A model generated the notes under the pieces. That model was not told the DNA's origin. It searched no databases and saw nothing but the letters and a program-made list of their open reading frames with translations. Shown piece after piece: positions 6,703 through 64,000 of a DNA stretch of 64,000 bases (the first letter of the stretch is position 1; each line of letters starts with the position of its first letter). A program made the translations under genes and the position numbers. The stretch is taken from NCBI GenBank assembly GCA_965222075.1, contig OZ244937.1:1-64000 (forward strand), in the 5' to 3' direction. Source of the DNA: Candidatus Latescibacterota bacterium. GTDB lineage: Bacteria; Latescibacterota; UBA2968; GCA-2709665.

Positions 6703-7449
6703 ATGGATTTTGAACGTGTTTTAAGCCTCTGTGTGGCGTTCCTGCTGGTTGTCGGTTTCTCCGACAGCGCGATTGCACAGGATGCGAAGTTTGAAAAGGG
6801 TATTTATGATGTCACCGAACATAACCAGGACCAGGTGAAAAATCTGTTTGTCGAGGATCAGGTGACGATTAAATATGCGCGCGCTTCTCAGATGGACCAG
6901 GCGGGCCGGTGGGTGAGACTGGGCCCGAATGGAGAGGTGTATGAGATCGTGGGCGAGCATCTTCCGGGTGCCGGAACCGAGACCATCCTGATAAACTACC
7001 AGTCCTTAGCCGATGACATCACGGACAAGGACCTGTGGCGTCCCCCCTGTATGATCTTCTACCAGGTGTTGCCGGTGGACTCAGACGGTCCGGTGCGCCT
7101 TTCAGATGCGTTTGAGGTTGAGCCAACACTGGGCGTACGGCCATTGCCGGGCGAATGGTTCACGCTTCCGCAGGCGAAGTTGGCGGCAAGGGTCTATCCG
7201 AATCCGTTCAACCCGAGCACGACGATATCCTACAACCTGCCGGGCGATGCCTTTGTTTCGATCGTCATCTACGATGTGACCGGACAGGAGGTGCGGCGGT
7301 TGGTCGGAGAGACGAAGGCTGCTGGACGCTACAAGGTCCGGTGGGATGGGAAGGATCAGTTTGGCCGCGATGTGAGCAGCGGTGTCTACTTCGCCAGGAT
7401 CGAAGCGGGTCCGTTTTCGACCTCGCAAAAGATGCTGCTGTTGAAGTAG
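6703..7449 (+). CDS. Small secreted protein with T9SS type-A sorting / FlgD-Ig C-terminal domain
   Basis: Signal peptide; YPNPFNPSTTISY...WDGKD...SSGVYFARI...KMLLLK; AGGAGG RBS. Confidence 0.85.
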   Translation: MDFERVLSLCVAFLLVVGFSDSAIAQDAKFEKGIYDVTEHNQDQVKNLFVEDQVTIKYARASQMDQAGRWVRLGPNGEVYEIVGEHLPGAGTETILINYQSLADDITDKDLWRPPCMIFYQVLPVDSDGPVRLSDAFEVEPTLGVRPLPGEWFTLPQAKLAARVYPNPFNPSTTISYNLPGDAFVSIVIYDVTGQEVRRLVGETKAAGRYKVRWDGKDQFGRDVSSGVYFARIEAGPFSTSQKMLLLK

Positions 7450-7541
7450 CGGAACGGCGTTCAAAAAAAGGCGAGGAGGGGAGATTTTTGTTTCGGAGGA
7501 AAGAAGCGTCGTTTCCGTCTCTCAAGGAAGGAGGTGGGTTG

Positions 7542-8258
7542 ATGCGACTTAACTGTTTGATCTTTAGCCTGGGTGGGATGGCTCTTTTGTTTGTATCGGC
7601 CGGCGTTCAGGCTCAGGAGACTAAGTGGGGAATCGGCGGGTTTGTGGATTTCAACATTCCGTTTCTGCAGTTGCGGGAGAGGTTCAGCAACACCCCAAAG
7701 TACGGGGCTACACTGAACTTTGTGCGCAGTAAGGCCGTTACCATCGAGATCGAGTACCACTACTCACGATTCGGCGACGGGAAACCGGGGGCAGAGCCGT
7801 TTACGTGGTCCGTGGACGGCAAGACCTACACCAGCCCGAACGCCGAATCCTCGTTGACGTTCAACAGCGTGACGATCAATGCCCTGATCTTTCTGGGTGA
7901 GGAGAACCGGTCCCGGGGATTCGCGGCAAAGGAGTACCGGTTCTATGTCCTGGTCGGTGGTGGGTTTTACCGCTACAAGATGGTCAACAAGGATCTGGTC
8001 TTCCCGGGACAGACTTCCCTGCCTATCGATTTGACGCTGGTGATGGACCCGCAGGTAGACCAGCGTTACACCCTGGGGGCGGACTTCGGCGTAGGCCTGG
8101 AGGCGTTTGTGACAGACAATCTGAGCTTTGACCTGCGGGGTCGGTACAACTTTGTGGTGGGAGAGCTGAGGCCGATGCTCTTTTACGAACAGGACCGGAC
8201 CCGGCCATTGCAGCTCGTCGACTTCGGCGTGGGGATGAAGTTCTATTTCTGGCAGTGA
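7542..8258 (+). CDS. Outer-membrane beta-barrel protein (OmpA/OmpW-like, 8-stranded)
   Basis: Signal peptide ending VQA, amphipathic strands, C-terminal GVGMKFYFWQ; GGAGG RBS. Confidence 0.75.
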   Translation: MRLNCLIFSLGGMALLFVSAGVQAQETKWGIGGFVDFNIPFLQLRERFSNTPKYGATLNFVRSKAVTIEIEYHYSRFGDGKPGAEPFTWSVDGKTYTSPNAESSLTFNSVTINALIFLGEENRSRGFAAKEYRFYVLVGGGFYRYKMVNKDLVFPGQTSLPIDLTLVMDPQVDQRYTLGADFGVGLEAFVTDNLSFDLRGRYNFVVGELRPMLFYEQDRTRPLQLVDFGVGMKFYFWQ

Positions 8259-8291
8259 GGTCCGGGGTCGGTTTCTGAAAGGAGGCAGGTT

Positions 8292-11200
8292 ATGGATCGC
8301 AAGCTTCTGTGCTTGGGCGTTGTGATCGCGGTTGCAGTAGTGCTGGCCGGTGCAGATGAGCTGCGGGCCGGTATCACCGGGAAGATCATCGGCGTGGTTC
8401 GGGATGCAGCCGGGACGCCGCTGCCGGGCGCCAATGTGGTTCTCAAGGAGGTCAACCTGGGGGGCACTGCGGACGCCGATAGCTACTATATGATTCTCAA
8501 CGTGCCCCCTGGAACCTACACGCTGACGGCTTCGTTGATCGGGTACGAGACAGTGTCCAAGACCGGCGTGGGGGTGATCGTGGACCATACCACCACCATC
8601 GATTTCTCCCTGAAAGAGGCGGCCGTGGAGCTGCAGGAGATCGTGGTGGTTGCGGAGCGTCCGCTGGTGGAGCCGGACAAGACATCGAGCAAGTATACGG
8701 TGGACCTCGACGAGGTGGAGCGGAGCCTGAGTTCGGGCCGGAGCACGGCCGAACTCCTGCAGTTGCTGCCCGGGATTGCCGTGGATGGATCCAACCGGAT
8801 TCGGGGCGGATTTGTGGGCGGCGCAATGTACTACGGAACCGACGTGGCCTACATGGTGGACGGGGTCCGGATGAACTACAACGACAACCGGGGGGGAGGC
8901 TCGGCCGGAGCTTTCACGACGGTCAACCGGGGCATCATCCAGGAACTCGCGGTGCTGACGGGGGTGACGTCGGCAGAGTACGGCAACGCCCAGGGGGGCG
9001 TGGTTTCGATCGTGACCAAGGATGGGGGCAGCCAGTACAAAGGATGGCTTGAGACCCGGTATGAGCCGTCGGGGAAGAAGCACTGGGGGGCAAACGTCTT
9101 CGACGCGCCCCAACACCGGGACAAGGCGACCTGGGATGATCCAAATTGGCGCAATGAGAAGCATCCCGACACAGGGGAGCTGATTCACGTGCGGTCGGAC
9201 TACACGGACCAGTTGGGATGGGACGTGGAGGGCAACCTGTCGGGTCCGATCGGGGCCAATGTCTCGTTTGTAGCCACGCTCAAGCACAGCCGCGTGGCCA
9301 ACCCCCTGCCCGGTCCGGAGAGGACGGGGTTTTACAACGACCGGGGACAGTTCGTGGCAACGGGCCCGAACAACATAACGACATCGGGGAACCTGACGTT
9401 CAGGCCGACGCCTGAGTTGAAGGTGAAAGTGGGAGGACTCTACCAGTGGTGGAAGATCTGGGCCGGTTCAACCCCGGACACCTATACCGCGGGGGTGGGG
9501 GTGTCCACCTTCCTGTCCGGGGTGGTGCGGGGGACGACCGACAATGGGCGGGACCTGTTCCTGCCGGAGAAGTGGTCGGGGGGGGGGCGCCAGACCAACA
9601 CGGAGGAGCTGATGTATGTCGTGTTCACCCAAACCCTTTCTCCCAGGACGTTCTACGAGGTACGGATCTCACACAGCCGGTCGCAGTCCGACACGTCGGG
9701 GACCAGCGACGCCACGGAGCCAAACAAAAAGGACGCTGCCGGGTGGTTCAACCTCGCCCGGAAGGTGAGCCGGTACAATGTGTCCGACCGGAAGCGCTTC
9801 GGCATCAAGGTGGACCTGTCCTCGCAGATGACCAAGGGACACTTTGTCAAAGCGGGGCTGGAATTCCTGAGAGGGAGTGTGCATCTGTTCCAGCGGTGGG
9901 ACTCGAACCCGGCGGATCGACGGTTCGTGTTCATCGGCAAAGATAACATCTTCGGAAAGCCGGAGCACCCGATTTTCTTCAACGCCTACGTGCAGGACAA
10001 GATGGAGTTTGAGGGGATGATCGTGAACGTGGGAATCCGGATGGATGGGTTCAACCCGAACACACGGGATGTGCCGCTGGGGGCCTACATGGGCGCGCCG
10101 ATGTTCTACAGATACACGTGGGCTCGGGACTACCTCTACCAGGAGGGCTCGCACTATGTCACGGATTCCCAGCAGCAACTGAGGTTCAGCCCCCGGTTGG
10201 GGCTCTCCCACCCGATCACCCAGCGGTCGCAGATGTGGTTCTCGTCCGGGGTCTACCTGCAGTGGCTGGACCTCTCGGCCTACTATGAGAAGGACTACCA
10301 ATCGTTTGGGCAGGGGGTGGATCGGGACGTCAACGGGAATGGGAAGATCGACGATACCGAACGGTTCAACCAGATGCGGATGACGTACGCCGGCATTCGC
10401 GGGAACATAAACTTGAAGCCGGCCAAGACGACGGCCTTCGAAGCGGGGATGGCCTGGAACTTCGTCTCCGACTACACGGCAACACTGTCCGCTTACTTCA
10501 AGAGCGAGGTAGACCATCCGAGCAACCTCTCCGGCCAGGGTTGGCGCGGGGCGTGGACCGGCTATAAGCGCTACAACCGCTACACGGTCAATGGCGTCCA
10601 CGGCAACACCCGGGGGATCGAGCTGTCGGCGCGAAAGGAGTTCAGCCACCACTTCTCGTTCAAGGTCTCCTATAACTACCAGTGGTCGCAGTGGACCACG
10701 GGCAAGCGGTTCACCGGGACCATGCGGATCCAACAGGATGCGGAATCGGTGCGCCGGATGGCCGGGACGATCATGTACACCCACCCGGAGACGGGGGCGC
10801 CGGTGCCTCAGTTGTTTCTGGATTGGGCCCCCCACCCGTCCGGGCGGGAGGTCCCGGTACCGATGACGGAGCAGCAGATCGTGGACCAGGGGAAGCAGGT
10901 GCAGGGAAGGTACAATAGCGAACTGGACTGCTGCCAGGCAGGGTCGTACTCGGGAGTGACGAATTGGGAGGGGCTGCTGCCGACGCCAGGCCCCCCGGGC
11001 GTGAATGGGCTTAAAGTCCAGGTCGGGGGCACGAGCAGGGTGGAGATGATGCCCAAGCCCGGGGACCGGCGGAATTTCGGGAGCGCGGTGTTTCTGGCTT
11101 CGCTGCCGGACAAGTTCCAGTTCGGGCCGCCCTTCCTGGGGCGGCTGCTGAGCAACGTCCGGATGAACCTGGTCACCCGGATCCAGACCGGGACACTGTT

Positions 11201-11510
11201 CCGGTATACGCCGCCGCAGGGCGGGGAGCAATCCTGGCGCGAGTTGGCGATGGACTCCCGGACCGACCTGGCGTTGGAGAAGACCTTCAATGTAAACCGC
11301 CGGGTGCAGCCGACGGTCTTCTTAGATGTTCGCAACCTGTTCAACCAGCAGGATCGGACCAACCCCACGAGCAGTTCGGATTATACCTATTTCGGAATTG
11401 TTGGCTCAAAGCCGGACAACCCCATCTACCTGTCATACGGCGATGCGAGGGATCGGATCTATGCCCACACACCGCGTCTGACACACATCGGCGTGCGGCT
11501 CGCCTGGTAG
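8292..11510 (+). CDS. TonB-dependent receptor 1 (N-terminal carboxypeptidase-regulatory-like domain)
   Basis: GITGKIIG..PLPGANV, plug motif SAEYGNAQGGVVSIVTKDG, YVQDKMEFEGMIVNVGIR, C-terminal GVRLAW. Confidence 0.92.
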   Translation: MDRKLLCLGVVIAVAVVLAGADELRAGITGKIIGVVRDAAGTPLPGANVVLKEVNLGGTADADSYYMILNVPPGTYTLTASLIGYETVSKTGVGVIVDHTTTIDFSLKEAAVELQEIVVVAERPLVEPDKTSSKYTVDLDEVERSLSSGRSTAELLQLLPGIAVDGSNRIRGGFVGGAMYYGTDVAYMVDGVRMNYNDNRGGGSAGAFTTVNRGIIQELAVLTGVTSAEYGNAQGGVVSIVTKDGGSQYKGWLETRYEPSGKKHWGANVFDAPQHRDKATWDDPNWRNEKHPDTGELIHVRSDYTDQLGWDVEGNLSGPIGANVSFVATLKHSRVANPLPGPERTGFYNDRGQFVATGPNNITTSGNLTFRPTPELKVKVGGLYQWWKIWAGSTPDTYTAGVGVSTFLSGVVRGTTDNGRDLFLPEKWSGGGRQTNTEELMYVVFTQTLSPRTFYEVRISHSRSQSDTSGTSDATEPNKKDAAGWFNLARKVSRYNVSDRKRFGIKVDLSSQMTKGHFVKAGLEFLRGSVHLFQRWDSNPADRRFVFIGKDNIFGKPEHPIFFNAYVQDKMEFEGMIVNVGIRMDGFNPNTRDVPLGAYMGAPMFYRYTWARDYLYQEGSHYVTDSQQQLRFSPRLGLSHPITQRSQMWFSSGVYLQWLDLSAYYEKDYQSFGQGVDRDVNGNGKIDDTERFNQMRMTYAGIRGNINLKPAKTTAFEAGMAWNFVSDYTATLSAYFKSEVDHPSNLSGQGWRGAWTGYKRYNRYTVNGVHGNTRGIELSARKEFSHHFSFKVSYNYQWSQWTTGKRFTGTMRIQQDAESVRRMAGTIMYTHPETGAPVPQLFLDWAPHPSGREVPVPMTEQQIVDQGKQVQGRYNSELDCCQAGSYSGVTNWEGLLPTPGPPGVNGLKVQVGGTSRVEMMPKPGDRRNFGSAVFLASLPDKFQFGPPFLGRLLSNVRMNLVTRIQTGTLFRYTPPQGGEQSWRELAMDSRTDLALEKTFNVNRRVQPTVFLDVRNLFNQQDRTNPTSSSDYTYFGIVGSKPDNPIYLSYGDARDRIYAHTPRLTHIGVRLAW

Positions 11511-11598
11511 CGGTGGGGGGAGCGGAGCGTCGCCCGGGAGGCGATTGTCCCCAATTCCACCCTGGCTTATGTTTGTTTAACACAAGGAGGCAGGAGCT

Positions 11599-14064
11599 AT
11601 GAAAATCGGCTGTCTGAACCTCGCTTTGAAGGCAGGGACCGCGATCAGCACGGCCCTGATCGCTGGCGCCGTCTGGCTGGAGACGACACAGGCGCAGATG
11701 AACCCGCACTCCATGCCCAGGAAGTATGCGATGAACACCCGGGCGATGATGATGTCGTCGTGGACCAACATGGGCACTCAGGGGGGGAGCGGGGATTACA
11801 ACTGGGGCGGCCGGAAAAACTCCTACCCGAGCATCGGCCTCGGGATAGGGGGCTACGGTGACCGGATGAGGAATCTCGGTTCCTCCCCGTGGGGTACATA
11901 TTATTGGGGCTACGGCACCTCCGGCGGGGAGGGTACCTTTGTTGTTAACGGAGAAACCAGGACGGTCACCATGGCCGGCCCACGCTTGAGCCAGGATTTC
12001 CTTGAGAACGTTCGGGCGCGGGTCTACGACCCGAAAGGGAAACCGGAGGAGAATTGGGGGGTGCCCAACCCGATTGTCCCACTCTGGAGGGGGGCGAAGT
12101 CGGGGGAATGGACGGGCATCGGAGGAGAGATACCGCCGATGGCCACCTACTGGCCCGGCATCACCGCTGCGGACCAGTGGAGCATCTATGCGAACGACCT
12201 CAATCCACAGAACACCGAAATGCCCCGAATGGCCAACTACGGGCTGAGCGGCTACATCGTGGACCTGACGCTCCCCGAAGAGACGATTATCGCGCAGTGG
12301 GTCGACATCCGGCACGGTGTTCAGATCACCCGGCGGGTCTACAACTGGAGCCACCCCGATTTCAACGATTTTTACATCCAGGATCTGACCTTCACCAACA
12401 CCGGGGACTTCGACGGGGACGGTGCCGAGGACAACCCGGGTGGGACGGCGACGCTCCAGGAGTTGTACTTCGGGTTCATGAACATCGAGGAATGCTGTGC
12501 ATACGGGACGGGCTACGGACATTCGAGAAACCCGTTTCTGGACCCGGACGACATCTACTACTACACGGACGCGGCTGGCTACCCCGGTGTGTTCCCCCCG
12601 GGGATGAGGGCGAGCATCTGGCGAGACGCGGACAATCCGAGAGACGCCATTAACGACCTGGGCGACCCCTGGTTCGACGCTATAGGGCCGAGTAGGTTTG
12701 ATATCGGCCAGACCGAGGGCCAGCCGAGGTCTCCGTCCCACTATGCGATGGTCCCGCTGGCCTTCCGGAACGGGGGGGAGTCCCACACGTTCAACGACTG
12801 GGACCAGGGGAAATACGTAGACCCTCAGGGGGAGCAGCCCTACGCGGCCAGGTATTGGAACGCCCGCGGCCAACAGGACTTCGACTACCCGTATACGGAG
12901 ACCCACTCCCAGACGCAACTGTCCCAGATCTTTACCGAGAAGGTCATTCAGGACAATCCCGATGAGAACAACCCGGCCCACCGCACCGGCTACATCCACG
13001 TGCAGATCTACGGGCCCTACACCCTTCAGCCGGGCGAAAGCGGCAAGACCGTGATGGCCTGGGTGGCCGGCCATCCGGCGCAGATGGTGCCCGATCATTC
13101 ACAGCCGGGCACCTACCACATGGACTACCTCGCGTGGGATCAGGCGGACAGACCGTCGGAGGATAAGCAGCAGGACATCGTGACCCTGGGCGAACAGGCG
13201 CTTTTGGAGAACGCGCAGATGGCCCATTTCACCTACCAGGCGAGCTACCAGATCCCGCCGGCGCCGACCAACGCGTTCATCCCCCCTGCCGACCTGACGG
13301 CCAGCGAAAACGCCCACCAGTTGATCAGGTGGTCCGATAAGGCGGACCAGGCGGTCAACCCCCTCACCGGGGAGCAGGATATCCTGGGCCACCGGGTCTA
13401 CCGCTCGACCCATTTTGGCTACGGGCCGTGGGAACTCCACGACACGATCAAGCCCGGGGAGAGCGGTCAGAGCAACAATGGGAAGTGGACCCACGACGCG
13501 GCGTCCGGGATGTACGAATATGAGGATCTGGATTCAGCGGCCGGATTCACCTACCACTACTCGGTCCGCCCGTTCGCCAAGGGCTACAGCGCCTGGACGA
13601 GTTCCGACGGGAAGAAGACCTTAGCGGACATCCCGTCGGCCCGGGTGCGGGCGAACGTGCAGAAGGGCTACGAGAGCGGATGGGGGCCTCAATCGGCCCG
13701 GACGTACACCGATGGGAGGGAGCCGTTCCAGCCGGTGACACCCGAACTCGAGCGGTTGGATAAGCAGGTGGTGGTGGTACCCAACCCCTATCGGGCGGAC
13801 GGCGAGCACCAGTATCCGAATCAAAAAACCATCCGTTTCGTGAACCTGCCGTCGAAGTGCAAGGTCTACATCTATTCGGCGTCCGGAGACCGGGTGCGGA
13901 CCCTGGCGCACGATGACCCCACCAGGGGGGAGAGGCCGTTTTTCCACTTGACGGGGAACCTGGCGGGTGACATCCCGACGGGATTCTACCACTTTGTTGT
14001 GGTGTCCGAGGTGCCGGGCAGCGAAGGGAAGGTCCAGCGTGGGGCCTTCGTGGTGATCAAGTAG
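11599..14064 (+). CDS. Large secreted TBDR-partner protein with Fn3-like domain and T9SS-like C-terminal domain
   Basis: Signal peptide; GHRVYRS..WEL; C-terminal VVVPNPY...IRFVNLP.KC..YIY...G.Y.FVV...FVVIK. Paralog of 33987-36545. Confidence 0.78.
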   Translation: MKIGCLNLALKAGTAISTALIAGAVWLETTQAQMNPHSMPRKYAMNTRAMMMSSWTNMGTQGGSGDYNWGGRKNSYPSIGLGIGGYGDRMRNLGSSPWGTYYWGYGTSGGEGTFVVNGETRTVTMAGPRLSQDFLENVRARVYDPKGKPEENWGVPNPIVPLWRGAKSGEWTGIGGEIPPMATYWPGITAADQWSIYANDLNPQNTEMPRMANYGLSGYIVDLTLPEETIIAQWVDIRHGVQITRRVYNWSHPDFNDFYIQDLTFTNTGDFDGDGAEDNPGGTATLQELYFGFMNIEECCAYGTGYGHSRNPFLDPDDIYYYTDAAGYPGVFPPGMRASIWRDADNPRDAINDLGDPWFDAIGPSRFDIGQTEGQPRSPSHYAMVPLAFRNGGESHTFNDWDQGKYVDPQGEQPYAARYWNARGQQDFDYPYTETHSQTQLSQIFTEKVIQDNPDENNPAHRTGYIHVQIYGPYTLQPGESGKTVMAWVAGHPAQMVPDHSQPGTYHMDYLAWDQADRPSEDKQQDIVTLGEQALLENAQMAHFTYQASYQIPPAPTNAFIPPADLTASENAHQLIRWSDKADQAVNPLTGEQDILGHRVYRSTHFGYGPWELHDTIKPGESGQSNNGKWTHDAASGMYEYEDLDSAAGFTYHYSVRPFAKGYSAWTSSDGKKTLADIPSARVRANVQKGYESGWGPQSARTYTDGREPFQPVTPELERLDKQVVVVPNPYRADGEHQYPNQKTIRFVNLPSKCKVYIYSASGDRVRTLAHDDPTRGERPFFHLTGNLAGDIPTGFYHFVVVSEVPGSEGKVQRGAFVVIK

Positions 14065-14084
14065 TTCTAACTATATAAGGAGGA

Positions 14085-15086
14085 ATGGCCGTGAAACGGA
14101 ACAACCTGATCGTCGCGGCGGTTCTCGGCCTGCTGCTGATCGTTTCGCCGGTGTATGCCCAAGAGGAGCCAGGACCGATCGTAGGAGAGGCAGGGATCAA
14201 GAAGGTAAACCTCTCCGGGATGCAATTTTTGAAGATCGGTCAGGGCGCCCGGGCTGTGGGGATGGGGGACGCCTTTACTGCGGTGGCCGACGACATCAAC
14301 GCCATCTTTTGGAACGGGGCCGGGCTGGTCCACGTGGAGCGGTTCGCGTACCAGGCGAACTACACCAGATGGATAGGTGATACCAACGTCTACTCCCTGG
14401 CGGCGGCCTGGAATACCCGCTCGTCACGGGGTGAGGTCCTCGGTTTCAGCATCCTCTCTCATCAGCCTCCAACGATCCTGGAGACGACCGTTTTCCAGCC
14501 GACCGGGACCGGGGGGACGGTCGATGTGAGTCAAATCTCCGTAGGTTTTCTCTACATGATAAAGTTCACGGACAAGCTTTCGGTCAGCGCCAAGGTCAAT
14601 TACGTGCAGGAGGTGCTCTTCGACACTAAGACGCAGGGCTTCATCGTCGACATAGGGAGCTTTTTCTACACCGGGTTCAAGAGCCTGCGGGTGGCCATGG
14701 CCTTAAAGAACTTCGGGCCGGACCGGACGGTGGAGGATCGGGCCTACCTGATGCCGCTCTTCTACATCATGGGCGTGGCCGGGGAGGTTTACGGCGAGAA
14801 GAGCGATCCGAGCTATCTGACGCTGTCGGCCGAGAGCGTGTATGCGATTGACTACGAGCAGCGCTACCACTTCGGGGCGGAACTCTGGCTGCAGAATACG
14901 CTTGCGCTGCGCGCCGGGTGGAAGTGGAACTACGACCTGGAGTCGATCGCCCTGGGCGCCGGCTTCAAGCAGACCGTGGGCGGCCGGACGTTCAACGTAG
15001 ACATCGCCTATTCGGTACTGCAGAAAGAGGGCGGCGTCTCCCTGTTCGGCCCTCCGATCCGGATCTCTGTGGGCGGGGCGTTCTGA
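14085..15086 (+). CDS. PorV/PorQ (UPF0164) family beta-barrel protein
   Basis: FLKIGQGARAVGMGDAF..ADD.NAIFWN motif, LALRAGWK, C-terminal F. Confidence 0.88.
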   Translation: MAVKRNNLIVAAVLGLLLIVSPVYAQEEPGPIVGEAGIKKVNLSGMQFLKIGQGARAVGMGDAFTAVADDINAIFWNGAGLVHVERFAYQANYTRWIGDTNVYSLAAAWNTRSSRGEVLGFSILSHQPPTILETTVFQPTGTGGTVDVSQISVGFLYMIKFTDKLSVSAKVNYVQEVLFDTKTQGFIVDIGSFFYTGFKSLRVAMALKNFGPDRTVEDRAYLMPLFYIMGVAGEVYGEKSDPSYLTLSAESVYAIDYEQRYHFGAELWLQNTLALRAGWKWNYDLESIALGAGFKQTVGGRTFNVDIAYSVLQKEGGVSLFGPPIRISVGGAF

Positions 15087-15147
15087 GATCGGTGCAGGGG
15101 ACACTCTGTCCCCAGTGGGGTGATTTCCCCTCTGATACCGGATAATC

Positions 15148-15191: not shown

Positions 15192-15215
15192 TATTCAGGA
15201 TTGAATTGGGTACGA

Positions 15216-24771: not shown

Positions 24772-24773
24772 GT

Positions 24774-56653: not shown

Positions 56654-56782
56654 TTTCTCGCGCCGGGCGATCCAGAGGTTCAGACGCGTGTCATCCGACA
56701 GCGCGACGGCATTCCGATCGCCGATGATGTCTGGCAGTCTATAACTGAAGTTGCCGTGTTGCTGGGTGTAAAGGAAATTTGA
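56654..56782 (+). pseudogene. 3' remnant of an Ldh_2 (AllD/YiaK-type malate/L-lactate dehydrogenase) family gene
   Basis: Translates as FLAPGDPEVQTRVIRQRDGIPIADDVWQSITEVAVLLGVKEI*, matching the PG(E/D)PE..R...GIP....W C-terminus. No start codon; in-frame stop just upstream. Confidence 0.65.
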
Positions 56783-56784
56783 CA

Positions 56785-58482
56785 ATGAGGGTTAGCTTGG
56801 CCAAGAAAAGACAGGTCTATGAGGTGCGAGTGACTCGGAATGTAGAAGCGGTGATGCGGGATGGGGTGGTGCTGAGAGCAGATATCGCCCGGCCGAAGGC
56901 TCGGGGGAGATTTCCAGTGATTCTGGAGCGAACGCCGTATGGGAAGGAGGTCCCTGCTCACCTGGCGGCGGCCGGCTACGTGGTGATTACGCAGGATATG
57001 CGGGGGTGCTACGCGTCCGACGGCGAGCTTACGTGGATGTTTATGCCGGGTTACCGAGATGCGGAGGATGGCTACGATACGGTGGAGTGGGCCGCCGGGC
57101 TTCCTTTTTCGAATGGGAAGGTTGGGGCGTTGGGGTTCTCCTATCTGTCATGGGCGGCCTGGGAACTGGCGTCGCTACGCCCGCCCCACCTGGTGGCGAT
57201 GTTCAACGGGGCGTTTGCCACGCGGCTGACCGACTGGGAGGTAGGGGGGGTGTTCCGGACCGGCCGGGCGCTGAAGTGGCTTTTCGGGCACGGCGCAGAC
57301 CAGAGGCGCCGTAAGGGGATGGGTGGGTACCACACATCGGCGGAGGTCCGGGCGGCGTCTGTAAAAGACCGGGAGAAGGCACTCTGGTTTGTGCCGCTAA
57401 AGGAGATGCCGAACGAGTATGTTGAGGGGCTCCGGGAGGATTTTATCTACTGGCTGGACCATCAGAATGAGGATTATTTCAATTTCTGCGAGCGGCATTG
57501 TGAGGTGGACGTGCCGGTGTTCCATACCACGGGGTGGGCAGACCGGCTTGTGCTAACGGTGGACCACTTTACGGGGATGCAGAAAAACGGCCGTACGGAG
57601 ATGGCGCGGGAGAACCAGCGGATCATCCTGGGGCCCTGGTCCCACGCGGTGGACGGGCACCGGAAGGTGGGGGAGATGGATTTCGGACGGAGGGCAAGGG
57701 TCGATTTTAATAAGCTGATCATCCGCTGGTTCGACTACTGGCTGAAGGGGATCGAAAACAGGATCATGAAAACGGCGCCGGTGCGCTACTTTGTGATGGG
57801 GGAGAACCGCTGGTATGAGGCGGAGACCTGGCCTTTGCCGGAGGCACGGCCGACGGCCTACTTCTTCCATTCCAGGGGTTCCGCGAACACGCCCTCGGGA
57901 GATGGGCGTCTCTCGCGCAGGGCGCCTGGACGGGAGGCATCGGACCGGTATGCCTACGATCCCCGGGACCCGGTGATGACGCTGTTTTATGAGAATTGCC
58001 AGGATGCGCCCTACGACCAGCGGCAACTGGACGGCCGGGAGGATGTGCTGGTCTACCAGACACAGCCGTTGCGTAAACCTGTGCGCGTAGTAGGGCGGCC
58101 GGAGGTGCGGCTTTTTGCTGCGTCGAGCGCCCTGGATACGGATTTTGTCGTAAAGCTGATCGATGTACATCCGGATGGGTTCGCCCATCAGGTCTGCTAC
58201 GGGATCGTGCGGGCGCGCTACCGGAAGTCTTTTGACCGGCCGAAGCTGCTGAGACCGGGGAGGGTCTACGAGTATACGATCCAGATGCTGCCGACGGGGA
58301 ACCTGTTTCAGGCCGGGCACCGGATCCGGGTGGCGGTGTCGAGTTCGGATTTTCCGAACTTCGACCGGAACCACAATACGGGGGGCGACGATTACGGGGA
58401 GGCGACTTTCAAAGTAGCGCATCAGGAGGTCTTCCACGATGCGCAGCGGTCCTCCCGGGTGGTTCTGTCAGTGGTGCCGTGA
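56785..58482 (+). CDS. CocE/NonD family hydrolase
   Basis: MRDGVVLRADI, RTPYGK, QDMRG, DGYDTVEW, GFSY, GPWSH, SSSDFPNFDRN. Confidence 0.93.
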   Translation: MRVSLAKKRQVYEVRVTRNVEAVMRDGVVLRADIARPKARGRFPVILERTPYGKEVPAHLAAAGYVVITQDMRGCYASDGELTWMFMPGYRDAEDGYDTVEWAAGLPFSNGKVGALGFSYLSWAAWELASLRPPHLVAMFNGAFATRLTDWEVGGVFRTGRALKWLFGHGADQRRRKGMGGYHTSAEVRAASVKDREKALWFVPLKEMPNEYVEGLREDFIYWLDHQNEDYFNFCERHCEVDVPVFHTTGWADRLVLTVDHFTGMQKNGRTEMARENQRIILGPWSHAVDGHRKVGEMDFGRRARVDFNKLIIRWFDYWLKGIENRIMKTAPVRYFVMGENRWYEAETWPLPEARPTAYFFHSRGSANTPSGDGRLSRRAPGREASDRYAYDPRDPVMTLFYENCQDAPYDQRQLDGREDVLVYQTQPLRKPVRVVGRPEVRLFAASSALDTDFVVKLIDVHPDGFAHQVCYGIVRARYRKSFDRPKLLRPGRVYEYTIQMLPTGNLFQAGHRIRVAVSSSDFPNFDRNHNTGGDDYGEATFKVAHQEVFHDAQRSSRVVLSVVP

Positions 58483-58593
58483 GCCCTGAAGATTTAAACC
58501 CGACCTCGTCGGTTTTCAGCATCTCAAACCCAAGCGGGATCCGATCTGAGCGGTGCAGGTCGTCCCTCGATTATCTTGATCTTCAAGACAGGA

Positions 58594-60231
58594 ATGGCCA
58601 TGGCGCATTATCCGTTTCCGCTGCGCAAGCACCTGGTCCAGAGCAGGCAGGGCATGGTGGCAACAGCTCACCCGCTGGCCTCACAGGCTGGGCTGCGTAT
58701 CCTCCAGGAGGGAGGGAATGTCGTGGACGCGACCGTGGCCACAGCCGCTGTGCTGAATGTGATCGATATGGACGAGTGTGGGCTGGGGGGCGACGCCTTC
58801 CTGATCGTCCACCTGGCAGAGTCGGACGAGACCTGGGCGCTCAACGGTGGTGGAGCCGCCCCGACCGGGGCGACGCGGGACTATTTCACGCGTCGCGGGA
58901 TAACCATGATGCCCCTGGAAGGGATTCTGAGCGCCTCGGTGCCGGGGGTGGTGGATGCCTATGTCACCGCGCTGGAGCGGTGGGGAAGTATGCCCTTAGC
59001 CGAGCTGTTGCAGCCGGCCATTTCCTACGCCGAAGAGGGATTTCCCCTTTCCGAACCGGTCGCCCTGTCGATTGACCGGAGCAAGAAGCTGGACCGCTTT
59101 CCCACCACCAGGCGCGTCTTCCGCGACCCGTCGAACCCGGCGCGACCGGGGGGCATCTTCCGGCAGCGGGATCTGGCCGGGAGCTTTCGGCTGATCGCCG
59201 AAGGGGGACGCGAGGCCTTCTACGAGGGACCGATTGCTGAGGCGATCGTCCAGCAGTCGGCCGAAGAGGGGGACGGTCTCTTCACGCTGGAAGACCTGAA
59301 GGCGCATCGCTCCGAAGTCTACCGGCCGCTCCAGATCGACTATAGAGGCTTCACCGTCTACGAGACGGCGCCCCCGTCGCAGGGTTTAATCGTGCTGGAG
59401 GAGCTTGCTCTGGTCGAGGCCTTCGATCTGGCGGCCATGGGTTTCGGGTCGGCCGAGACGATTCACACGATGGTGGAAGCGAAGAAGCTGGCCTTTGCCG
59501 ACCGAAACGCCTACGTGGGCGATCCGCGCTTTGTGGACGCTCCCGTCTCCCGTCTCCTGTCCAGGGCGTATGCGGCGGAACGGCGCAGGGCGATCGATCC
59601 CGACCGGGCGGACAACGCCCCGACGGCCGGGACCTTAGCCGACGGGGACAATACCTCTTCCTTCGTGGTGGCCGATGGAGAGGGGAATGCGGTGTCGTTT
59701 ATCCAGAGCGTCTCAGCGGGATACGGGGCGGGGGTGATCGCGGGGGAGACGGGGATCTTTCTGAACAATCGGGCGGGACGAGCGTTCACGCTGGAGGACG
59801 GGCATCCCAACTGCATCGCGCCGGGGAAGCGGGCGGTCTACACCCTGAACTGCTACATGATCTTTCGGAATGGACGCCCCATGATCGTGGGAGGGACGCC
59901 TGGAGGGGATAGACAGCCTCAGCATAACTTCCAGGTGATCGCCAGTTTCCTCGATTTCGGGTTTGACGCCCAGGAGGCTGTCGAGGCTCCCCGGTGGTCC
60001 AGCCTGCCGGGCACTGACCCGGCTACTCTCGGCGATCCGCTGACCCTGACGGTCGAGAGGCGGTTCCCGGAGGAGGCGATCCGAGAGTTGGCGGCGAAGG
60101 GACATCGGATGGATGTGGTGGGAGACTGGGGGGTGGGGGGGGAGGCGCTGGTCATCGTCATCGATCCAGACACGGGTGTCCTCTCCAGCGGCTGCGACCC
60201 CCGATGCATCGGGTGCGCCATCGGATATTGA
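58594..60231 (+). CDS. ggt: Gamma-glutamyltransferase
   Basis: GGNVVDA, GLGGDAF, SVPG, NTSSFVVADGEGNAVS (Thr nucleophile), GTPGGDRQPQ, DPR. Confidence 0.92.
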   Translation: MAMAHYPFPLRKHLVQSRQGMVATAHPLASQAGLRILQEGGNVVDATVATAAVLNVIDMDECGLGGDAFLIVHLAESDETWALNGGGAAPTGATRDYFTRRGITMMPLEGILSASVPGVVDAYVTALERWGSMPLAELLQPAISYAEEGFPLSEPVALSIDRSKKLDRFPTTRRVFRDPSNPARPGGIFRQRDLAGSFRLIAEGGREAFYEGPIAEAIVQQSAEEGDGLFTLEDLKAHRSEVYRPLQIDYRGFTVYETAPPSQGLIVLEELALVEAFDLAAMGFGSAETIHTMVEAKKLAFADRNAYVGDPRFVDAPVSRLLSRAYAAERRRAIDPDRADNAPTAGTLADGDNTSSFVVADGEGNAVSFIQSVSAGYGAGVIAGETGIFLNNRAGRAFTLEDGHPNCIAPGKRAVYTLNCYMIFRNGRPMIVGGTPGGDRQPQHNFQVIASFLDFGFDAQEAVEAPRWSSLPGTDPATLGDPLTLTVERRFPEEAIRELAAKGHRMDVVGDWGVGGEALVIVIDPDTGVLSSGCDPRCIGCAIGY

Positions 60232-60266
60232 GCTGTTCTGGCTTTGTACAGGCTGGAGGTGATCGC

Positions 60267-62288
60267 ATGTCATCCCGCTCTGCTGTTCCATCCACTGGTC
60301 AGCCCAGGGCCTCTGCCGGAGTCAGATCCTTCCACGCAGTCACCCCTCGCGCCCTCGCCGTCGGCCTCCTGCTGGTCATCGCGATCGATTTCTGGAATAT
60401 CTATTCCGAAGCGGTCATCCGTGGCTCGCGGGTCAATTTGACCCAGTTTCCCGTTTCCCTTGTCGCGCCTTTCGTACTTCTTGTCCTCGTTCTCAACCCC
60501 TGCCTGGCCGCTTTGCGCCAAAGGTGGGCGCTCACCCCCGGCGAGTTGCTTGTTGTGCTTGGCATGGGTCTGGTCGGCTCTGTCATCCCTTCCTACGGCA
60601 TGACCAGCATCCTCATCGGCATGCTGGCCACTCCTTTCTACCACGCCACTCCCGAGAACCAGTGGGACATCTACTTCTTAGATCATATCCCACCCTGGCT
60701 GGCTCCCCGCGATACCGACTTTGCCCTCACCCATCTGTTCGAGGGGTTGCCCCCTGGTGCCTCCATTCCCTGGGGCGTCTGGGTCATCCCCCTCTTGTGG
60801 TGGGGCAGCCTGATCGCCGCGGTTGCGGCTTTCTCCTTCGGTATTGCGGTAATTCTGCGCCGCCAGTGGGCTGAACACGAACGCCTCGTCTACCCGCTCC
60901 TGAAGCCTGCCGTCGCCCTCACCGAGCAGCCGCATCCCGGCACCTTCTGGGCTGATACTGTGCGGACCCGCCTCTTCTGGGCCGGCTTCGCCCTCGCCTT
61001 CGGGTTCAACACCTGGCTCTACCTCTCCTCCACCTTTTTAATGGTCCCTTCCCTTCCCCGCATCCTGTGGCCGGGCCAGTGGTTCTACCTTGACCGGTAC
61101 ATGCCCCCGCTGTGGATCCGGTTCAATCTCTATACCCTCGCCTTCGGGTATTTCGTCAACCAGGACGTCCTCCTCAGCTTCTGGGTCTTCAACCTGCTCC
61201 TGACGGCGGAGATCGGGCTGTTTCGACGGGTGGGCTACCGGATCAGCGGCGATGCCGGCGTCCTCGGCTACATCGGTGCAAGCGGCTTCTGGGGCAGCGC
61301 CGTGATGGCCTGGCAGTGCTTCGGCGCCCTAACTGTGCTGGTGCTCTGGGGTTTCTATGTGGCCCGGCGACACCTGGCCGATGTGGTCCGCAAGGCCCTC
61401 CGACCCGGCCACTCCATTGACGACACGGGTGAATTGCTCTCCTGCCGCGCCGCTGTCTGCTGCACCATCGGGGGCCTGGCCTACACGTTCTTCTGGTTTC
61501 ACGCTGCCGGCCTGGAACTCCGGATGCTCCTTCCCTTTCTGTTTGCCCTCCTCATTGTCTACGTTGGCCTGTCGCGCTTCGTGGCCGATGCCGGGGCCAT
61601 TTACGCCTACAGCCCCATGAGCCCCCAGGAATTCATGGTGCGCATCAGCGGCACCTCCTCCATCTCCGCCTCCAGTATGACGCTTCTCACCTACTCCTTT
61701 GTCCTCCGCGCCAACGCGCGGGGGTTCCTCCTGCCCACGCTGGCCCAGGTGGTCCGTCTGGGCGACCTGATCCGGGGGCAGGGACGACGGCTCTTCGCCG
61801 CGACCTCCCTGGCCATCTTCGTCGCCTTCATCGTTTCGATTCTCATGACTCTGTACATGGGCTACACCTACGGCGTTTCCAATTTCCGCGACCTCCCCCT
61901 CACCAGATACCCGCCCTTCCTCTTCAACCGGACCCTCAGTCTCATGAAGAGCTACGCCGACACCGGCCCGGAGCGCCTCATGTTTTTCGCCATTGGCGGA
62001 GGCGTTTTGGCCCTCCTCACCTACCTGCGCTACCGCCTTCCCCGGTGGCCCCTGCATCCCATCGGTCTCCCCATTGCCGGCACCAGTGCCCGAAGCTCGA
62101 TTATGAGCATGGTCCTGATCTGGGGCGTCAAGTCGATCCTGCTGCGGATCGGCGGCGTAGCCCTCTACCGCCGGGGTTCCCCTCTCTTCATCGGCATCAT
62201 CGCAGGTTACACCATCGCTATCTTTCTCGGCCACCTGGCCGATTCTGTCTGGTTTTCCGGCCAGGGGCATTTCCTTCACGGATGGTGA
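60267..62288 (+). CDS. DUF6785/DUF6784-type membrane protein, copy 3
   Basis: Paralog of the other two; GGAGG RBS before MSSRSAVP. Confidence 0.8.
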   Translation: MSSRSAVPSTGQPRASAGVRSFHAVTPRALAVGLLLVIAIDFWNIYSEAVIRGSRVNLTQFPVSLVAPFVLLVLVLNPCLAALRQRWALTPGELLVVLGMGLVGSVIPSYGMTSILIGMLATPFYHATPENQWDIYFLDHIPPWLAPRDTDFALTHLFEGLPPGASIPWGVWVIPLLWWGSLIAAVAAFSFGIAVILRRQWAEHERLVYPLLKPAVALTEQPHPGTFWADTVRTRLFWAGFALAFGFNTWLYLSSTFLMVPSLPRILWPGQWFYLDRYMPPLWIRFNLYTLAFGYFVNQDVLLSFWVFNLLLTAEIGLFRRVGYRISGDAGVLGYIGASGFWGSAVMAWQCFGALTVLVLWGFYVARRHLADVVRKALRPGHSIDDTGELLSCRAAVCCTIGGLAYTFFWFHAAGLELRMLLPFLFALLIVYVGLSRFVADAGAIYAYSPMSPQEFMVRISGTSSISASSMTLLTYSFVLRANARGFLLPTLAQVVRLGDLIRGQGRRLFAATSLAIFVAFIVSILMTLYMGYTYGVSNFRDLPLTRYPPFLFNRTLSLMKSYADTGPERLMFFAIGGGVLALLTYLRYRLPRWPLHPIGLPIAGTSARSSIMSMVLIWGVKSILLRIGGVALYRRGSPLFIGIIAGYTIAIFLGHLADSVWFSGQGHFLHGW

Positions 62289-62411: not shown

Positions 62412-62460
62412 TATGTATTACGTTAGGACTTCATGACTTCCAAATAAGCTTTAGCTTCTG

Positions 62461-62563
62461 AGAAGGATAAATCGGTCGAAAGGCCGAGAGGAATAGTTAT
62501 GGGTCTTCGTCTGCCACAAGAGAGCCGCACTGCCGGGGGAATGGATGGTAGTACGGTTTTTTT
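62461..62563 (+). ncRNA. c-di-GMP-I (GEMM)-like riboswitch variant with overlapping intrinsic terminator
   Basis: ggataaa-tcggtc-GAAA-ggccga-gaggaatag-ttatgggtct...gagagccgcactgcc. The 3' strand can alternatively pair with ggtagtacggt, followed by a T-run. Confidence 0.55.
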
Positions 62564-62767
62564 GTATGCGTAAAAAGAGCCGTTAGTCGCCGACTTTGGC
62601 GAGCAGGGGCTAACGGGGCACAGGTTGTGTGAGGGGTGTGTGCGGGGTGCGGGGAGGCAGTTGAGCCGGGAGAAAGGAGGGGAGAACCGATGGAAAGACT
62701 TCACTTCAGATTTGGGATTTCGGGAGGAATGAGGTTCTGTTTTAACCCGAAGGAAGGAGGAAGGCAG

Positions 62768-64000
62768 ATGAGCAGGTTGAAGATAGGTTTGGGCATTGCC
62801 CTCGCGCTGTGCGCCGTTTTGGCGATGGGCAGTGTGGCGACTGCCGGGACGACCGGGAAGGTGATGGGCGTCGTGACGGACGAGAAGGGAGATCCGCTGC
62901 CGGGGGCCAGCGTGGTGCTTGAGGGGACGCAGCGGGGATCGACGACGGATGCGGACGGGTCCTACGTGATCCTTTCGGTCGATCCCCGCGTGTATTCGGC
63001 GACGGCCTCTATGGTGGGCTACCATTCGGTGACCCAGAAGCAGGTACAGGTGCGGGCGGATTTTACCACGACGGTGATTTTCACGCTTCGGGAGCAGGCG
63101 CTGGAGTTAGAGGAGATGGTGGTGGTGGCGGAGCGTCCTCCGGTGGAGCCGGACCGGACGGAGAGCCGGTATGTGGTGACCGCCGAGGAAATCCAGCGGA
63201 CGCCGATTATACGGAAGGTGGAGGACTTCCTGGGGCTGGAGCCGGGTATGTCGGTGGACGGTCAGGGGTTCGTCCGGGGTTCGATGCCTGACGAGTCCAC
63301 GCTTTATGTGGACGGAGTCCGAATCCAGCAGACCGATAGACGCGTTTGGGGTGGATTTAACGCGGAGAACAAGCAGTGGTGGGCGGTCAACACGGATGCG
63401 GTGCAGGAGATCTCCCTGATTACGGGCGGGATGAACGCCGAGTACGGGAACGCGCAGTCCGGAGTTGTACAGATCGTGACACGGGATGGGGGGCGGGACT
63501 ACCACGGCGAGGTGGAGTACCGGCTCACGCCGGCGGGGCAGAAGCACTGGGGGAAGAACGTGTACGAGGCGCCCGAGCACCGGGGGCACATGCGGTGGGA
63601 CGATCCGGATTGGGTGGCCGAGGTGGACCCTGCGACGGGGAATCTGGTGCACCAGCGGACCAATTATACGGACTGGCGGGGCCACTACTTCGACGGTTTT
63701 GTGGGCGGTCCGCTGGTTTCGAATGCGTCTTTCTTTGTCAGCGCCCGGCACAGGCGGGATGCCGCCCGCATTCCCGGGCCGTGGGAGACGCAGCCGGCCA
63801 ACATCCGGACGTCGGCGAAATTGACTGTGCCGATGGGGCATAATGTGAAGTTCCGAGCCGGCTGGCTCTCCGACTATTGGGAAAACTTTCAGAGCGGCCA
63901 GTTGAGGAATACTCGCGTCACCAACGTGCTGAGGGGCCCCGGGCGGGACATCTTCCTGCCGCTGGGGTCGCCTGCGGGGAAGACCATCAACAGGGAGAAC
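62768..64000 (+). CDS. TonB-dependent receptor 3, 3' end outside the window
   Basis: Not in the ORF track. Manual translation gives MSRLKIGLG...AGTTGKVMGVVTDEKGDPLPGASVV...GGMNAEYGNAQSGVVQIVTRDG...QKHWGKNVYEAPEHRG. Confidence 0.9.
   Translation, partial: MSRLKIGLGIALALCAVLAMGSVATAGTTGKVMGVVTDEKGDPLPGASVVLEGTQRGSTTDADGSYVILSVDPRVYSATASMVGYHSVTQKQVQVRADFTTTVIFTLREQALELEEMVVVAERPPVEPDRTESRYVVTAEEIQRTPIIRKVEDFLGLEPGMSVDGQGFVRGSMPDESTLYVDGVRIQQTDRRVWGGFNAENKQWWAVNTDAVQEISLITGGMNAEYGNAQSGVVQIVTRDGGRDYHGEVEYRLTPAGQKHWGKNVYEAPEHRGHMRWDDPDWVAEVDPATGNLVHQRTNYTDWRGHYFDGFVGGPLVSNASFFVSARHRRDAARIPGPWETQPANIRTSAKLTVPMGHNVKFRAGWLSDYWENFQSGQLRNTRVTNVLRGPGRDIFLPLGSPAGKTINREN

Follow-up and report, generated by a model that had tools for sequence, protein, structure and literature searches.

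The textbook route by which Bacteroidota and their relatives capture polymers is SusC/SusD (RagA/RagB), in which a TonB-dependent receptor (TBDR) with a CarboxypepD_reg-like extension is encoded beside a binding lipoprotein, in pairs that are multiplied many times per genome and lie within variable catabolic and regulatory gene sets, including Reg_prop/Y_Y_Y sensors. Other outer-membrane pairings belong to the system for type IX secretion (T9SS): PorZ pairs with PorQ and PorU with PorV in the attachment complex, and cargo with a type B C-terminal domain (CTD) is accompanied by an adjacent barrel of the PorP/SprF family, as in SprB-SprF. Here we describe a three-gene module in a Candidatus Latescibacterota bacterium, an uncultured, sponge-associated organism with a single-contig genome of 5.36 Mb and about 62% G+C (GCA_965222075.1, contig OZ244937.1), based on an analysis of the first 64 kb of this contig (the window). 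The module, a triad, contains genes for a TBDR, a secreted partner protein of about 830 amino acids (aa) and a barrel of the PorV/PorQ family. We consider it reasonably probable that each triad encodes one outer-membrane capture-and-import complex. The functionally closest system is SusC/SusD, with which the triad has in common the receptor with its extension beside a binding protein (here a putative one), the many copies per genome and the type of gene surroundings, while the partner tail and barrel are mechanistically closest to PorZ-PorQ, PorU-PorV and type B cargo with PorP/SprF.

The window was inventoried by Pfam and NCBIfam scans of 37 open reading frames (ORFs) and by an all-against-all BLASTP comparison. 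Nearly all genes from 6.7 kb to the end of the window are on the plus strand, as are all genes mentioned below unless otherwise stated. These comparisons recovered the two triads in identical gene order that an initial annotation of the window had described. The first (8292-15086) consists of TBDR1 (8292-11510, 1072 aa), partner 1 (11599-14064, 821 aa) and barrel 1 (14085-15086, 333 aa), and the second (30860-37524) of TBDR2 (30860-33925, in an ORF that opens at 30746), partner 2 (33987-36545, 852 aa) and barrel 2 (36520-37524, with a methionine near 36556 as the probable start). Both barrels were assigned to the PorV/PorQ family by the PorV_fam model NF033709, with 144.8 and 143.0 bits, respectively, at a cut-off of 90. 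The copies are divergent, with identities of 29% over 1094 aa for the receptors, 34% over 363 aa plus 30% over 204 aa for the partners and 41% over 329 aa for the barrels. The related third receptor that had been noted at 62768 is cut by the window end at 64000, continues to 65833 and heads a full third triad, with a partner gene at 65892-68228 and a barrel gene at 68259-69209.

The genome as a whole contains 20 triads, all with the order receptor, partner, barrel on one strand, and 13 of them lie within 0-290 kb or 4.88-5.36 Mb. One partner gene (4437715-4440122) and one receptor gene (2089816-2093020) among the 20 are each split into two ORFs, which may indicate a frameshift or decay. When only the 18 triads without a split gene were considered, the pairwise distances calculated for each of the three genes correlated with r = 0.91-0.93, a level reached in none of 5000 permutations, which suggests that the triad genes duplicate and diverge as units. 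Such correlated divergence is a sign of shared history, not of contact.

To find related loci, we searched with a profile of 19 partner paralogues, using one genome per species. We found 171 relatives and kept 80 loci, in which the neighbouring genes were called with custom hidden Markov models (HMMs) on six-frame ORFs. A TBDR gene was located directly upstream of the partner gene in 70 of the 73 loci with room for one, and two of the three misses (L070 and L090) were artefacts of the overlap rule used. A PorV-family barrel gene was located directly downstream in 77 of 79 loci, and the complete trio was syntenic in 68 of 72. According to the labels given by the depositors, 53 of the 80 loci are from Latescibacterota/Latescibacteria, 12 from Gemmatimonas/Gemmatimonadota, 6 from Neomarinimicrobiota/Marinimicrobia, and 1 each from KSB1, Fidelibacterota and Cytophagia, while 6 are from an 'uncultured bacterium'. 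The neighbourhood statistics proposed along with the initial annotation thus agree with its description of a repeated module, since the trio is kept across several phyla. Against 1.84 billion cluster representatives, the partner profile yielded 256 proteins at E <= 1e-30; at E <= 1e-10 the number was 1950, with some of the weaker matches confined to the Fn3 domain or the tail. A literature search, with subscription journals and supplements outside its reach, found no paper on the triad module.

The receptors resemble SusC only in part. All three TBDRs in the window contain a CarboxypepD_reg-like extension and a plug (PF13715, PF13620, PF07715), and TBDR1 consists of this extension, a TonB-box-like sequence (EIVVVAERP), the plug and a barrel. 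The N-terminal domain matches a fragment annotated as 'SusC homolog' (9hfj), while the barrel region is not recognised by Pfam and the sequences of solved TonB-dependent transporters (TBDTs) match only the plug and the N-terminal extension. The SusC/RagA model TIGR04056 gave 62.9, 46.9 and 69.4 bits for the three receptors against a cut-off of 368.25, with matches confined to model positions 2 to about 216, and no TBDR in the genome exceeded this cut-off (best score 96.7 bits). As the initial annotation had stated, neither SusD nor a glycoside hydrolase was recognisable by family matches among the 37 window ORFs, and for SusD the search of the whole genome with PF07980 gave no match, while the control in B. 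thetaiotaomicron was matched. The triad thus differs from SusC/SusD in that its receptors fail the SusC model in a genome without a SusD homologue, in that the partner is no lipoprotein but consists largely of beta structure and has a secretion tail, and in that a private barrel is an obligatory third gene. From its position and fold, the partner appears to replace SusD.

A segment of the type K(K/R)H(W/R)G had been reported as an insert common to the three receptors. The segment is real, at residues 262-305 of TBDR1, just after the plug, but TBDR3 reads QKHWG and TBDR2 has 8 extra residues. Of the 16,949 ORFs called in the genome, 20 contain a loosened form of the motif, which also occurs in 50 of the 80 related loci. 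The 20 ORFs are exactly the 20 triad TBDRs, and the motif therefore serves as a signature of a receptor subfamily. In a 2015 analysis of Latescibacteria, proteins with the Plug domain were assigned to the uptake of vitamin B12 and iron (PMC4454575).

Both partner proteins of the window have a signal peptide, no lipobox and a tail of the form '(V/I)VPNPY ... F V(V/T) I (K/R)', and as whole proteins they match no Pfam or NCBIfam family. For partner 1, the signal peptide is followed by a beta-supersandwich (~37-560), a helix, an Fn3 domain (~565-700) and a C-terminal beta-sandwich (~720-821). An AlphaFold2 model, inferred from an alignment of the 19 paralogues, had a mean predicted local distance difference test score (pLDDT) of 71 and a predicted template modelling score (pTM) of 0.78. 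In this model, the N-terminal beta-supersandwich known from GH65, GH94, GH116 and cyclic-glucan synthase is matched by residues 37-610 (Z 15-17, 246-282 residues aligned, root-mean-square deviation (rmsd) 3.2-4.6 A). The modelled sandwich is followed by a long helix, the Fn3-like domain and the C-terminal beta-sandwich, not by a catalytic (alpha/alpha)6 domain, and Foldseek pairs the C-terminal part with Fn3 tandems and with PorZ (5m11). Across the 19 paralogues, 54 columns are invariant, many of them Asp, Glu, Gly or Pro. The N-terminal domain is the most variable part, with a mean pairwise identity of 38% compared to 43% for the tail, which fits a ligand-specific head on a constant anchor.

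Scanned alone, the 19 paralogue tails gave recurrent sub-threshold matches to T9SS sorting domain models: 12 to the PorZ model, which was the best match for these 12 tails, 10 to TIGR04183 (best E 9.8e-4), 10 to CHU_C and 7 to Por_Secre_tail (PF18962). Judged from these matches, the tail looks like a divergent T9SS-type sorting domain, in line with the T9SS-like CTD suggested in the initial annotation. The resemblance would also be expected if the partner were ordinary T9SS cargo, an enzyme or an adhesin, with the PorV-family barrel acting only as a shuttle and the receptor co-regulated but outside the complex. Galactose-mutarotase-like sandwiches can be catalytic or accessory, and the 54 invariant columns could belong to an active site or to one that binds calcium. 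We nevertheless find it unlikely that the partner is ordinary cargo, given the fixed order of the trio in 68 of 72 loci from several phyla, the joint divergence of the three genes and the lack of a catalytic domain beside the modelled sandwich. Furthermore, one housekeeping PorV would suffice as a shuttle, and a separate gene at 3.196 Mb scores better with the PorV_fam model than the triad barrels (227.9 bits).

The nearest solved chain to the triad barrels is PorV from F. johnsoniae (6h3i_F, E 8.9e-21). The barrels are not PorV or PorQ proper, as they scored 55.4 and 51.1 bits with NF033710 (cut-off 250) and 54.1 and 42.8 bits with NF033711 (cut-off 220). To examine the docking of the tail, we predicted the complex of barrel 1 with residues 565-821 of partner 1 in three runs alongside three controls. 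The interface score ipSAE was 0.89, 0.89 and 0.88 for the three runs and 0.00 for the best of the controls; in a benchmark, 116 of 157 solved complexes attained this mark, as did 2 of 215 mismatched pairs, counts that hold only roughly since custom alignments were used. The runs had at least 91% of their contacts in common, with a partner pLDDT of at least 65, and the predicted interface is formed by partner residues 725-821 together with the N-terminal segment and loops of the barrel. The model supports binding of the tail to the barrel but does not show it, and it lends predicted structural detail to the proposal of the initial annotation that the partner is held by its own PorV-like barrel. 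With regard to a pairing code, the conservation of the predicted interface residues did not clearly differ from that elsewhere (47% vs 41% for the tail, 41% vs 49% for the barrel).

If the prediction is right, the arrangement would resemble PorZ-PorQ and PorU-PorV in that a barrel of the PorV/PorQ family holds the C-terminal beta-sandwich of a surface protein. It differs in that a genome contains about 20 private barrels, all of them encoded beside their own cargo and receptor, and in that the role would be nutrient capture rather than cargo attachment. The resemblance to type B cargo lies in a cargo gene that is followed by the gene for a dedicated outer-membrane barrel, and CHU_C was weakly matched by 10 of the 19 tails, but the triad barrel is of the PorV/PorQ rather than the PorP/SprF family. 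In PMC12578637, PorV is described as a shuttle that binds CTDs (Glew 2017, cited therein) and as a member of the FadL family. The same paper describes the BamG-BamH pair of the BAM complex in Bacteroides, in which an extracellular protein is permanently held by the loops of a 14-strand FadL/PorV-like barrel, so that in this organism such a barrel has a use other than secretion shuttling (PMC12578637). As a component of BAM, BamG-BamH does not come from an uptake locus, and we liken it to the triad by description only.

The FadL relationship of PorV (PMC12578637) also suggests that the triad barrel could be a channel of the FadL type that passes a co-substrate or product of small size or hydrophobic nature, with the link to the tail a prediction artefact; barrel 2 has a weak match to the Pfam family Toluene_X (E 0.015), and the complex score could be due to solved PorV complexes that the predictor had memorised. 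We regard such a channel as highly improbable, since the three controls scored 0.00 against 0.89 and the barrel gene always follows a partner gene with a tail, and since BamG-BamH provides a precedent for a FadL-like barrel that holds an extracellular protein (PMC12578637).

To characterise the surroundings of the module, we scanned 118 of the 130 ORFs called in the flanks of the other 18 triads (loci L098-L115), leaving out 5 ORFs that lie within triad genes in antisense orientation and 7 short ones from the beginning of L114. The glycan-directed genes in these flanks encode two sulfatases, one FGE-sulfatase, one heparinase II/III, two PcRGLX-like, one RGL11-like and one pectate-lyase-like protein, as well as GH127-like, GH130-like and DUF4838/GH67N proteins and two hydrolases similar to acetyl-xylan esterase (AXE). 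Other enzymes include nine PhyH dioxygenases, five homocysteine methyltransferases, two DegT and three GFO/IDH/MocA proteins. Among the regulators are three of the LacI type, one of the GntR type and two sigma-54 activators with Reg_prop and Y_Y_Y domains, just upstream of a TBDR gene. Since other triads are located among glycan-degrading enzymes and sugar-type regulators, the term polysaccharide utilisation locus (PUL) analogue, used in the initial annotation, is a fair description.

Two further observations were made in these flanks. The two sigma-54 activators, located upstream of two triads at 2085652-2089098 and 2110090-2113536 (L104:2453-5899 and L105:2391-5837), are 1149 aa long and combine a Reg_prop and Y_Y_Y sensor, typical of the hybrid two-component PUL regulators of Bacteroides, with a sigma-54 activator AAA+ domain and a Fis-type helix-turn-helix (HTH) domain. 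The number of PhyH-type Fe/2-oxoglutarate dioxygenases (9 of 118 flank ORFs) is unusually high, as is that of the PF02574-type matches (24) in the genome.

For the presence of the export and energising machineries, we searched the whole genome. SprA is present (618 bits summed), the TonB C-terminal domain (TonB_C) has 9 matches, and a canonical type A tail was found at the end of at least 16 ORFs, one of which is the small secreted protein with a signal-like N-terminus encoded at 6676-7449 (TIGR04183 38.1 bits, cut-off 23; Por_Secre_tail, FlgD_ig). The co-occurrence of SprA with the partner family was rejected as support: all 34 partner-bearing genomes in a sample of 81 from the phylum have SprA, but so do 76 of the 81, and the co-occurrence therefore does not discriminate. 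The genes for the T9SS motor and ring went undetected, those for GldM and GldN with models that were silent in the control genomes too, and beyond the plug neither Pfam nor solved TBDT sequences recognise the receptor barrel. Both observations could be accommodated if the module worked outward, with the TonB-dependent barrel, of the CarboxypepD_reg type, exporting or assembling the partner and the PorV-family barrel displaying it, to form a surface coat or adhesion layer in the sponge. An analogy is Oar, which is needed for the secretion of PopC in Myxococcus. An outward role seems rather improbable to us, however, as triads are located in catabolic islands with inner-membrane carriers and sugar-type regulators, SprA is present, and the plug and TonB-box features of the receptors are of the importer type.

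The enzymes encoded between the triads of the window fit the removal of methyl, acyl and amino groups proposed in the initial annotation, with BHMT-like proteins for the first, NodB-fold and Amidohydro_2 proteins for the second and DegT proteins for the third. Five genes encode methyltransferases of about 300 aa (24768-25676, 37595-38536, 41469-42374, 44195-45121 and 55674-56600) that scored 141-156 bits with PF02574 at a cut-off of 22; the first, a BHMT-like homocysteine S-methyltransferase, scored 144.8 bits. Their best solved match is BHMT (PDB 1umy, 1lt7; E 6.9e-34, 121 bits). In the protein encoded at 41469-42374, the only one checked residue by residue, the three zinc cysteines in 'NCC' and 'CCG' align with 'VNC' and 'GGCCG' in BHMT. 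The window proteins differ from BHMT in lacking its C-terminal region, and they fail the bacterial BHMT equivalog model (91.6 vs 338 bits). The genome contains 24 PF02574-type paralogues.

Three genes in the window encode members of a 600-aa family (38585-40393, 42374-44194 and 45121-46944) with 53 homologues, which has no Pfam family and gave no match to PF01522. A model with a pLDDT of 91.9 contains a ThuA/GATase1-like domain, a NodB/CE4 deacetylase fold and a C-terminal sandwich. Residues ~180-517 align with the CE4-fold structures 3rxz, 3qbu, 1z7a, 3cl6 and 3s6o (Z 19.5-21.4, 235-253 residues, rmsd 3.2-3.5 A), and the whole chain aligns with Agd3 (Z 17.1 over 489 residues), which is also the top Foldseek match (6nwz, E 3.1e-15). 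The NodB fold is thus common to this family and to deacetylases of the Agd3, PelA, NDST and CE4 types, and the overall arrangement is similar to that of Agd3, while the N-terminal ThuA/GATase1-like domain and the C-terminal sandwich are additions relative to Agd3/CE4. In 31 homologues, D228, D267, H320, H358 and H463 are invariant. As the protein has no signal peptide, it is probably cytoplasmic.

The second and third of these genes form tandem units with a methyltransferase gene (41469-42374/42374-44194 and 44195-45121/45121-46944) that are 88.7% identical over 2731 nt, and in both units the start codon of the 600-aa gene and the stop codon that ends the methyltransferase ORF overlap by a single base. 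The three copies of the 600-aa gene are 93-97% identical in DNA (96.7% over 1788 nt for the first two), while the methyltransferase encoded before the first copy is only about 41% identical to the others. This pattern suggests that the 600-aa gene on its own was recently duplicated or underwent gene conversion. The methyltransferase and the 600-aa protein were also considered as a conserved pair, an idea that was rejected: the two genes are adjacent only in the three copies of the window, and the remaining strong 600-aa paralogues, at 260656 and 5341515, have no adjacent methyltransferase gene.

The remaining enzyme genes in the window encode two Amidohydro_2 proteins (25691-26482 and 26484-27320), a CE4-type polysaccharide deacetylase (29478-30455; PF01522 30 bits, cut-off 23.1), a xylose-isomerase-like TIM barrel with an AP_endonuc_2 domain (40383-41306), a GFO/IDH/MocA oxidoreductase (49106-50293), two DegT/DnrJ/EryC1 aminotransferases (52995-55657), a Peptidase_S15/PepX_C hydrolase (56779-58482) and a gamma-glutamyltranspeptidase (58576-60231), the last two without an evident signal peptide. 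No signal peptide was seen at the enzyme N-termini inspected. The suggestion that the N-containing substrates are small was not supported, as the partner sandwich is of a type found in carbohydrate enzymes and sister loci contain sulfatases and polysaccharide lyases. Going by the enzyme families, small molecules may be no better candidates than oligomers that contain sugar, are N-acetylated or aminated and possibly N-methylated, and are imported whole.

Three DUF6785 proteins and two GWxTD proteins are encoded in the window, as previously listed, one of the DUF6785 genes being on the minus strand (27349-29370; PF20581 328.7 bits, PF20580 75 bits) and the other two on the plus strand (46931-48994 with 333.7 bits and 60204-62288 with 353.8 bits for PF20581). 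All three belong to both DUF6785 (PF20581, cut-off 25) and DUF6784 (PF20580) and are polytopic, with 11-12 hydrophobic segments (12 in the protein encoded at 46931-48994). In the genome, a DUF6785 gene is located within 10 kb of 14 of the 20 triads, whereas 2000 random placements gave 3.5 on average and 13 at most, and in the related loci it is found on the same strand within 5 kb downstream in 35 of 80. DUF6785 is thus a frequent companion of the triads, not a dedicated part. The OPT family (PF03169) has no match in the genome, and the DUF6785 profile matched no PDB entry at E <= 1. A relationship of DUF6785 to OPT was not supported by sequence, with an hhalign probability of 0.4% (E 0.14) against 8 OPT genes of the same phylum; the similarity to 'peptide transporter/OPT' clusters in a language model was weak (0.78-0.80).

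The GWxTD proteins contain TPR families and signal peptides. The first gene (15206-18814, start uncertain) follows triad 1 and the second (50331-52970) encodes 879 aa; both proteins match TIGR04514 (54.3 and 43.8 bits, cut-off 28), while Pfam PF20094 remained below its cut-off. The whole second protein matches only TPR structures, and for its C-terminal 549 aa nothing was found in the PDB (best E 1.5) or, besides GWxTD, in Pfam. Genes of the TPR-GWxTD type are located within 3 kb of 11 of the 20 triads (random mean 1.5, maximum 8), where the genome-wide counts are upper bounds as the GWxTD HMM used spans the TPR region, and in the 5-kb flanks of the related loci we found strong matches in 5 of 80, with a further 8 loci that have weaker ones. 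The literature search mentioned above found no paper on DUF6785 or GWxTD. Directly before TBDR1 lies a gene for an outer-membrane beta-barrel of 238 aa (7542-8258; OMP_b-brl 25.8 bits, below the cut-off), a homologue of which is located directly upstream of the TBDR gene in 9 of the 20 triads, including triad 1. This small barrel, the five BHMT-like genes and the three genes for the 600-aa NodB-fold proteins were absent from the initial annotation.

Taken together, we suggest that the partner would be exported by Sec, after which its divergent T9SS-type CTD would take it to the cell surface. The tail would then be kept and docked on the adjacent, private 14-strand barrel of the PorV/PorQ family, like PorZ on PorQ and PorU on PorV, and the barrel would tether the partner beside the TonB-dependent receptor encoded just upstream. 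A glycan or glycoconjugate would be bound by the variable beta-supersandwich of the partner and imported by the receptor with the help of TonB, and the polytopic DUF6785 proteins or other inner-membrane carriers may move it into the cytoplasm. There, the signal-less BHMT-like, NodB-fold, Amidohydro_2, DegT and GFO/IDH/MocA enzymes and the sugar-isomerase-type TIM barrel would strip the ligand.

Several observations weigh against this interpretation. In the partner model, 185 residues have a pLDDT below 50, and the fold that the modelled sandwich has in common with glycoside hydrolases does not show that it binds sugar. All tail matches to T9SS models are below the curated cut-offs, and the two window partners are the weakest, as the tail of partner 1 has no TIGR04183 match at E <= 1 and only FlgD-type matches. 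F. johnsoniae PorV, with 7 entries, is the only solved sequence relative of the triad barrels, and some of these entries presumably show PorV holding a cargo tail; the complex score may thus reflect likeness to solved PorV complexes. With respect to the T9SS core and tonB genes, for which a search had been proposed, SprA and TonB were found as described above, but the models for GldM, GldN and PorP (TIGR03517, TIGR03523, TIGR03519) gave no match in the genome and none in any control genome either, GldK (TIGR03525) gave only generic partial matches of the FGE-sulfatase type, and the PorU-like gene is a partial match (212.8 bits, cut-off 420).

The distribution data also contain contrary points. 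In the 81 genomes, an even sample of the phylum in which the matches per genome, limited to 12 scored candidates, are not copy numbers, the partner family was present in 34 genomes and in 27 of 29 from the window's own order but in 0 of 15 from one sister family, and is therefore lineage-restricted within Latescibacterota. The window itself contains no glycoside hydrolase, lyase or sulfatase recognised by Pfam in the 37 ORFs scanned. Finally, the proposed import across the inner membrane by DUF6785 agrees with the polytopic nature of these proteins and their enrichment near triads, but they have no sequence or profile link to any transporter family, and only 16 of the 46 full-length DUF6785 genes lie within 10 kb of a triad.

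The other genes of the window are located mostly between the first triad and the first methyltransferase gene. They encode a secreted FG-GAP/UnbV_ASPIC protein (18985-20832) and a secreted TPR_12 protein (20865-22346), both assigned from Pfam and the N-terminus, and are followed by two ORFs without a Pfam family (22383-23627 and 23539-24771). The G+C content at third codon positions (GC3, 0.78) favours the frame of 23539-24771 over the N-terminus of an ORF at 23856-25676. A plus-strand ORF at 27580-29535, which overlaps the minus-strand DUF6785 gene, was rejected as spurious. Outside the cassette, the minus strand at 994-6082 encodes an FG-GAP/UnbV_ASPIC protein of 798 aa, a pentapeptide-repeat protein of 515 aa and an FSH1-type serine hydrolase.

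The first triad was also found in public sequencing data. At least part of its stretch was present in 20 of the 22 public runs listed, four of which are sponge metatranscriptome libraries from one study, with the label sponge metagenome. Contigs of these four runs cover 6600-16085 with 0-1 differing letters per piece, and the records are at least 95% identical. The locus is thus present in sponge RNA libraries, which does not by itself prove transcription. The word depth in the four runs was 0-3 over 16.6-25 kb compared to 6-35 over 6.6-16 kb, where the runs had been chosen with the triad itself and the uncovered parts count neither as evidence of differential expression nor against DNA carry-over.

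Three local features were seen in the four RNA runs. In all of them, the word depth was highest at 14560-15734 (18-35 vs 6-13 for the neighbours), a segment that consists of the 3' part of the PorV-family gene, the following gap and the first ~500 bases of the GWxTD ORF; since genes cannot be ranked by contig depth, the peak does no more than hint at a small RNA or a stable 3' fragment. The contigs of all four runs break inside the methyltransferase gene at 24768-25676 at the same two places (25438-25468), probably because of a switch to paralogous methyltransferase copies, which are 68-75% identical. In two runs, the contig skips 324 bases within TBDR1 (9661-9986), with 20 letters on the shorter side, which is probably an assembly artefact or a paralogue.

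Beyond the genome studied here, we tentatively propose, as a possibility held with less confidence than the role of the individual triads, that several candidate phyla of the FCB group (Latescibacterota, Marinimicrobia, KSB1 and Fidelibacterota) use a SusD-independent 'utilisome'. In such a system, the T9SS-type tail would serve as a permanent anchor, a lectin-like partner would be locked by a private PorV paralogue for each TonB receptor, with about 20 orthogonal complexes side by side per cell, and the pathway would be continued in the periplasm and the inner membrane by the GWxTD/TPR and DUF6785 proteins. Sediments, oceans and sponges are habitats in which Latescibacterota, Marinimicrobia and KSB1 are abundant. 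The TonB receptors of these phyla have so far been read as gates for vitamins or iron (PMC4454575). If the proposal is true, the three-gene module would be a recognisable marker of substrate-uptake loci in these phyla, and the PorV/PorQ family would gain a further use, as a repurposed secretion-system barrel with a non-homologous binding protein. The triads would also provide a first functional context for the partner family, DUF6785, GWxTD and the 600-aa NodB-fold family.

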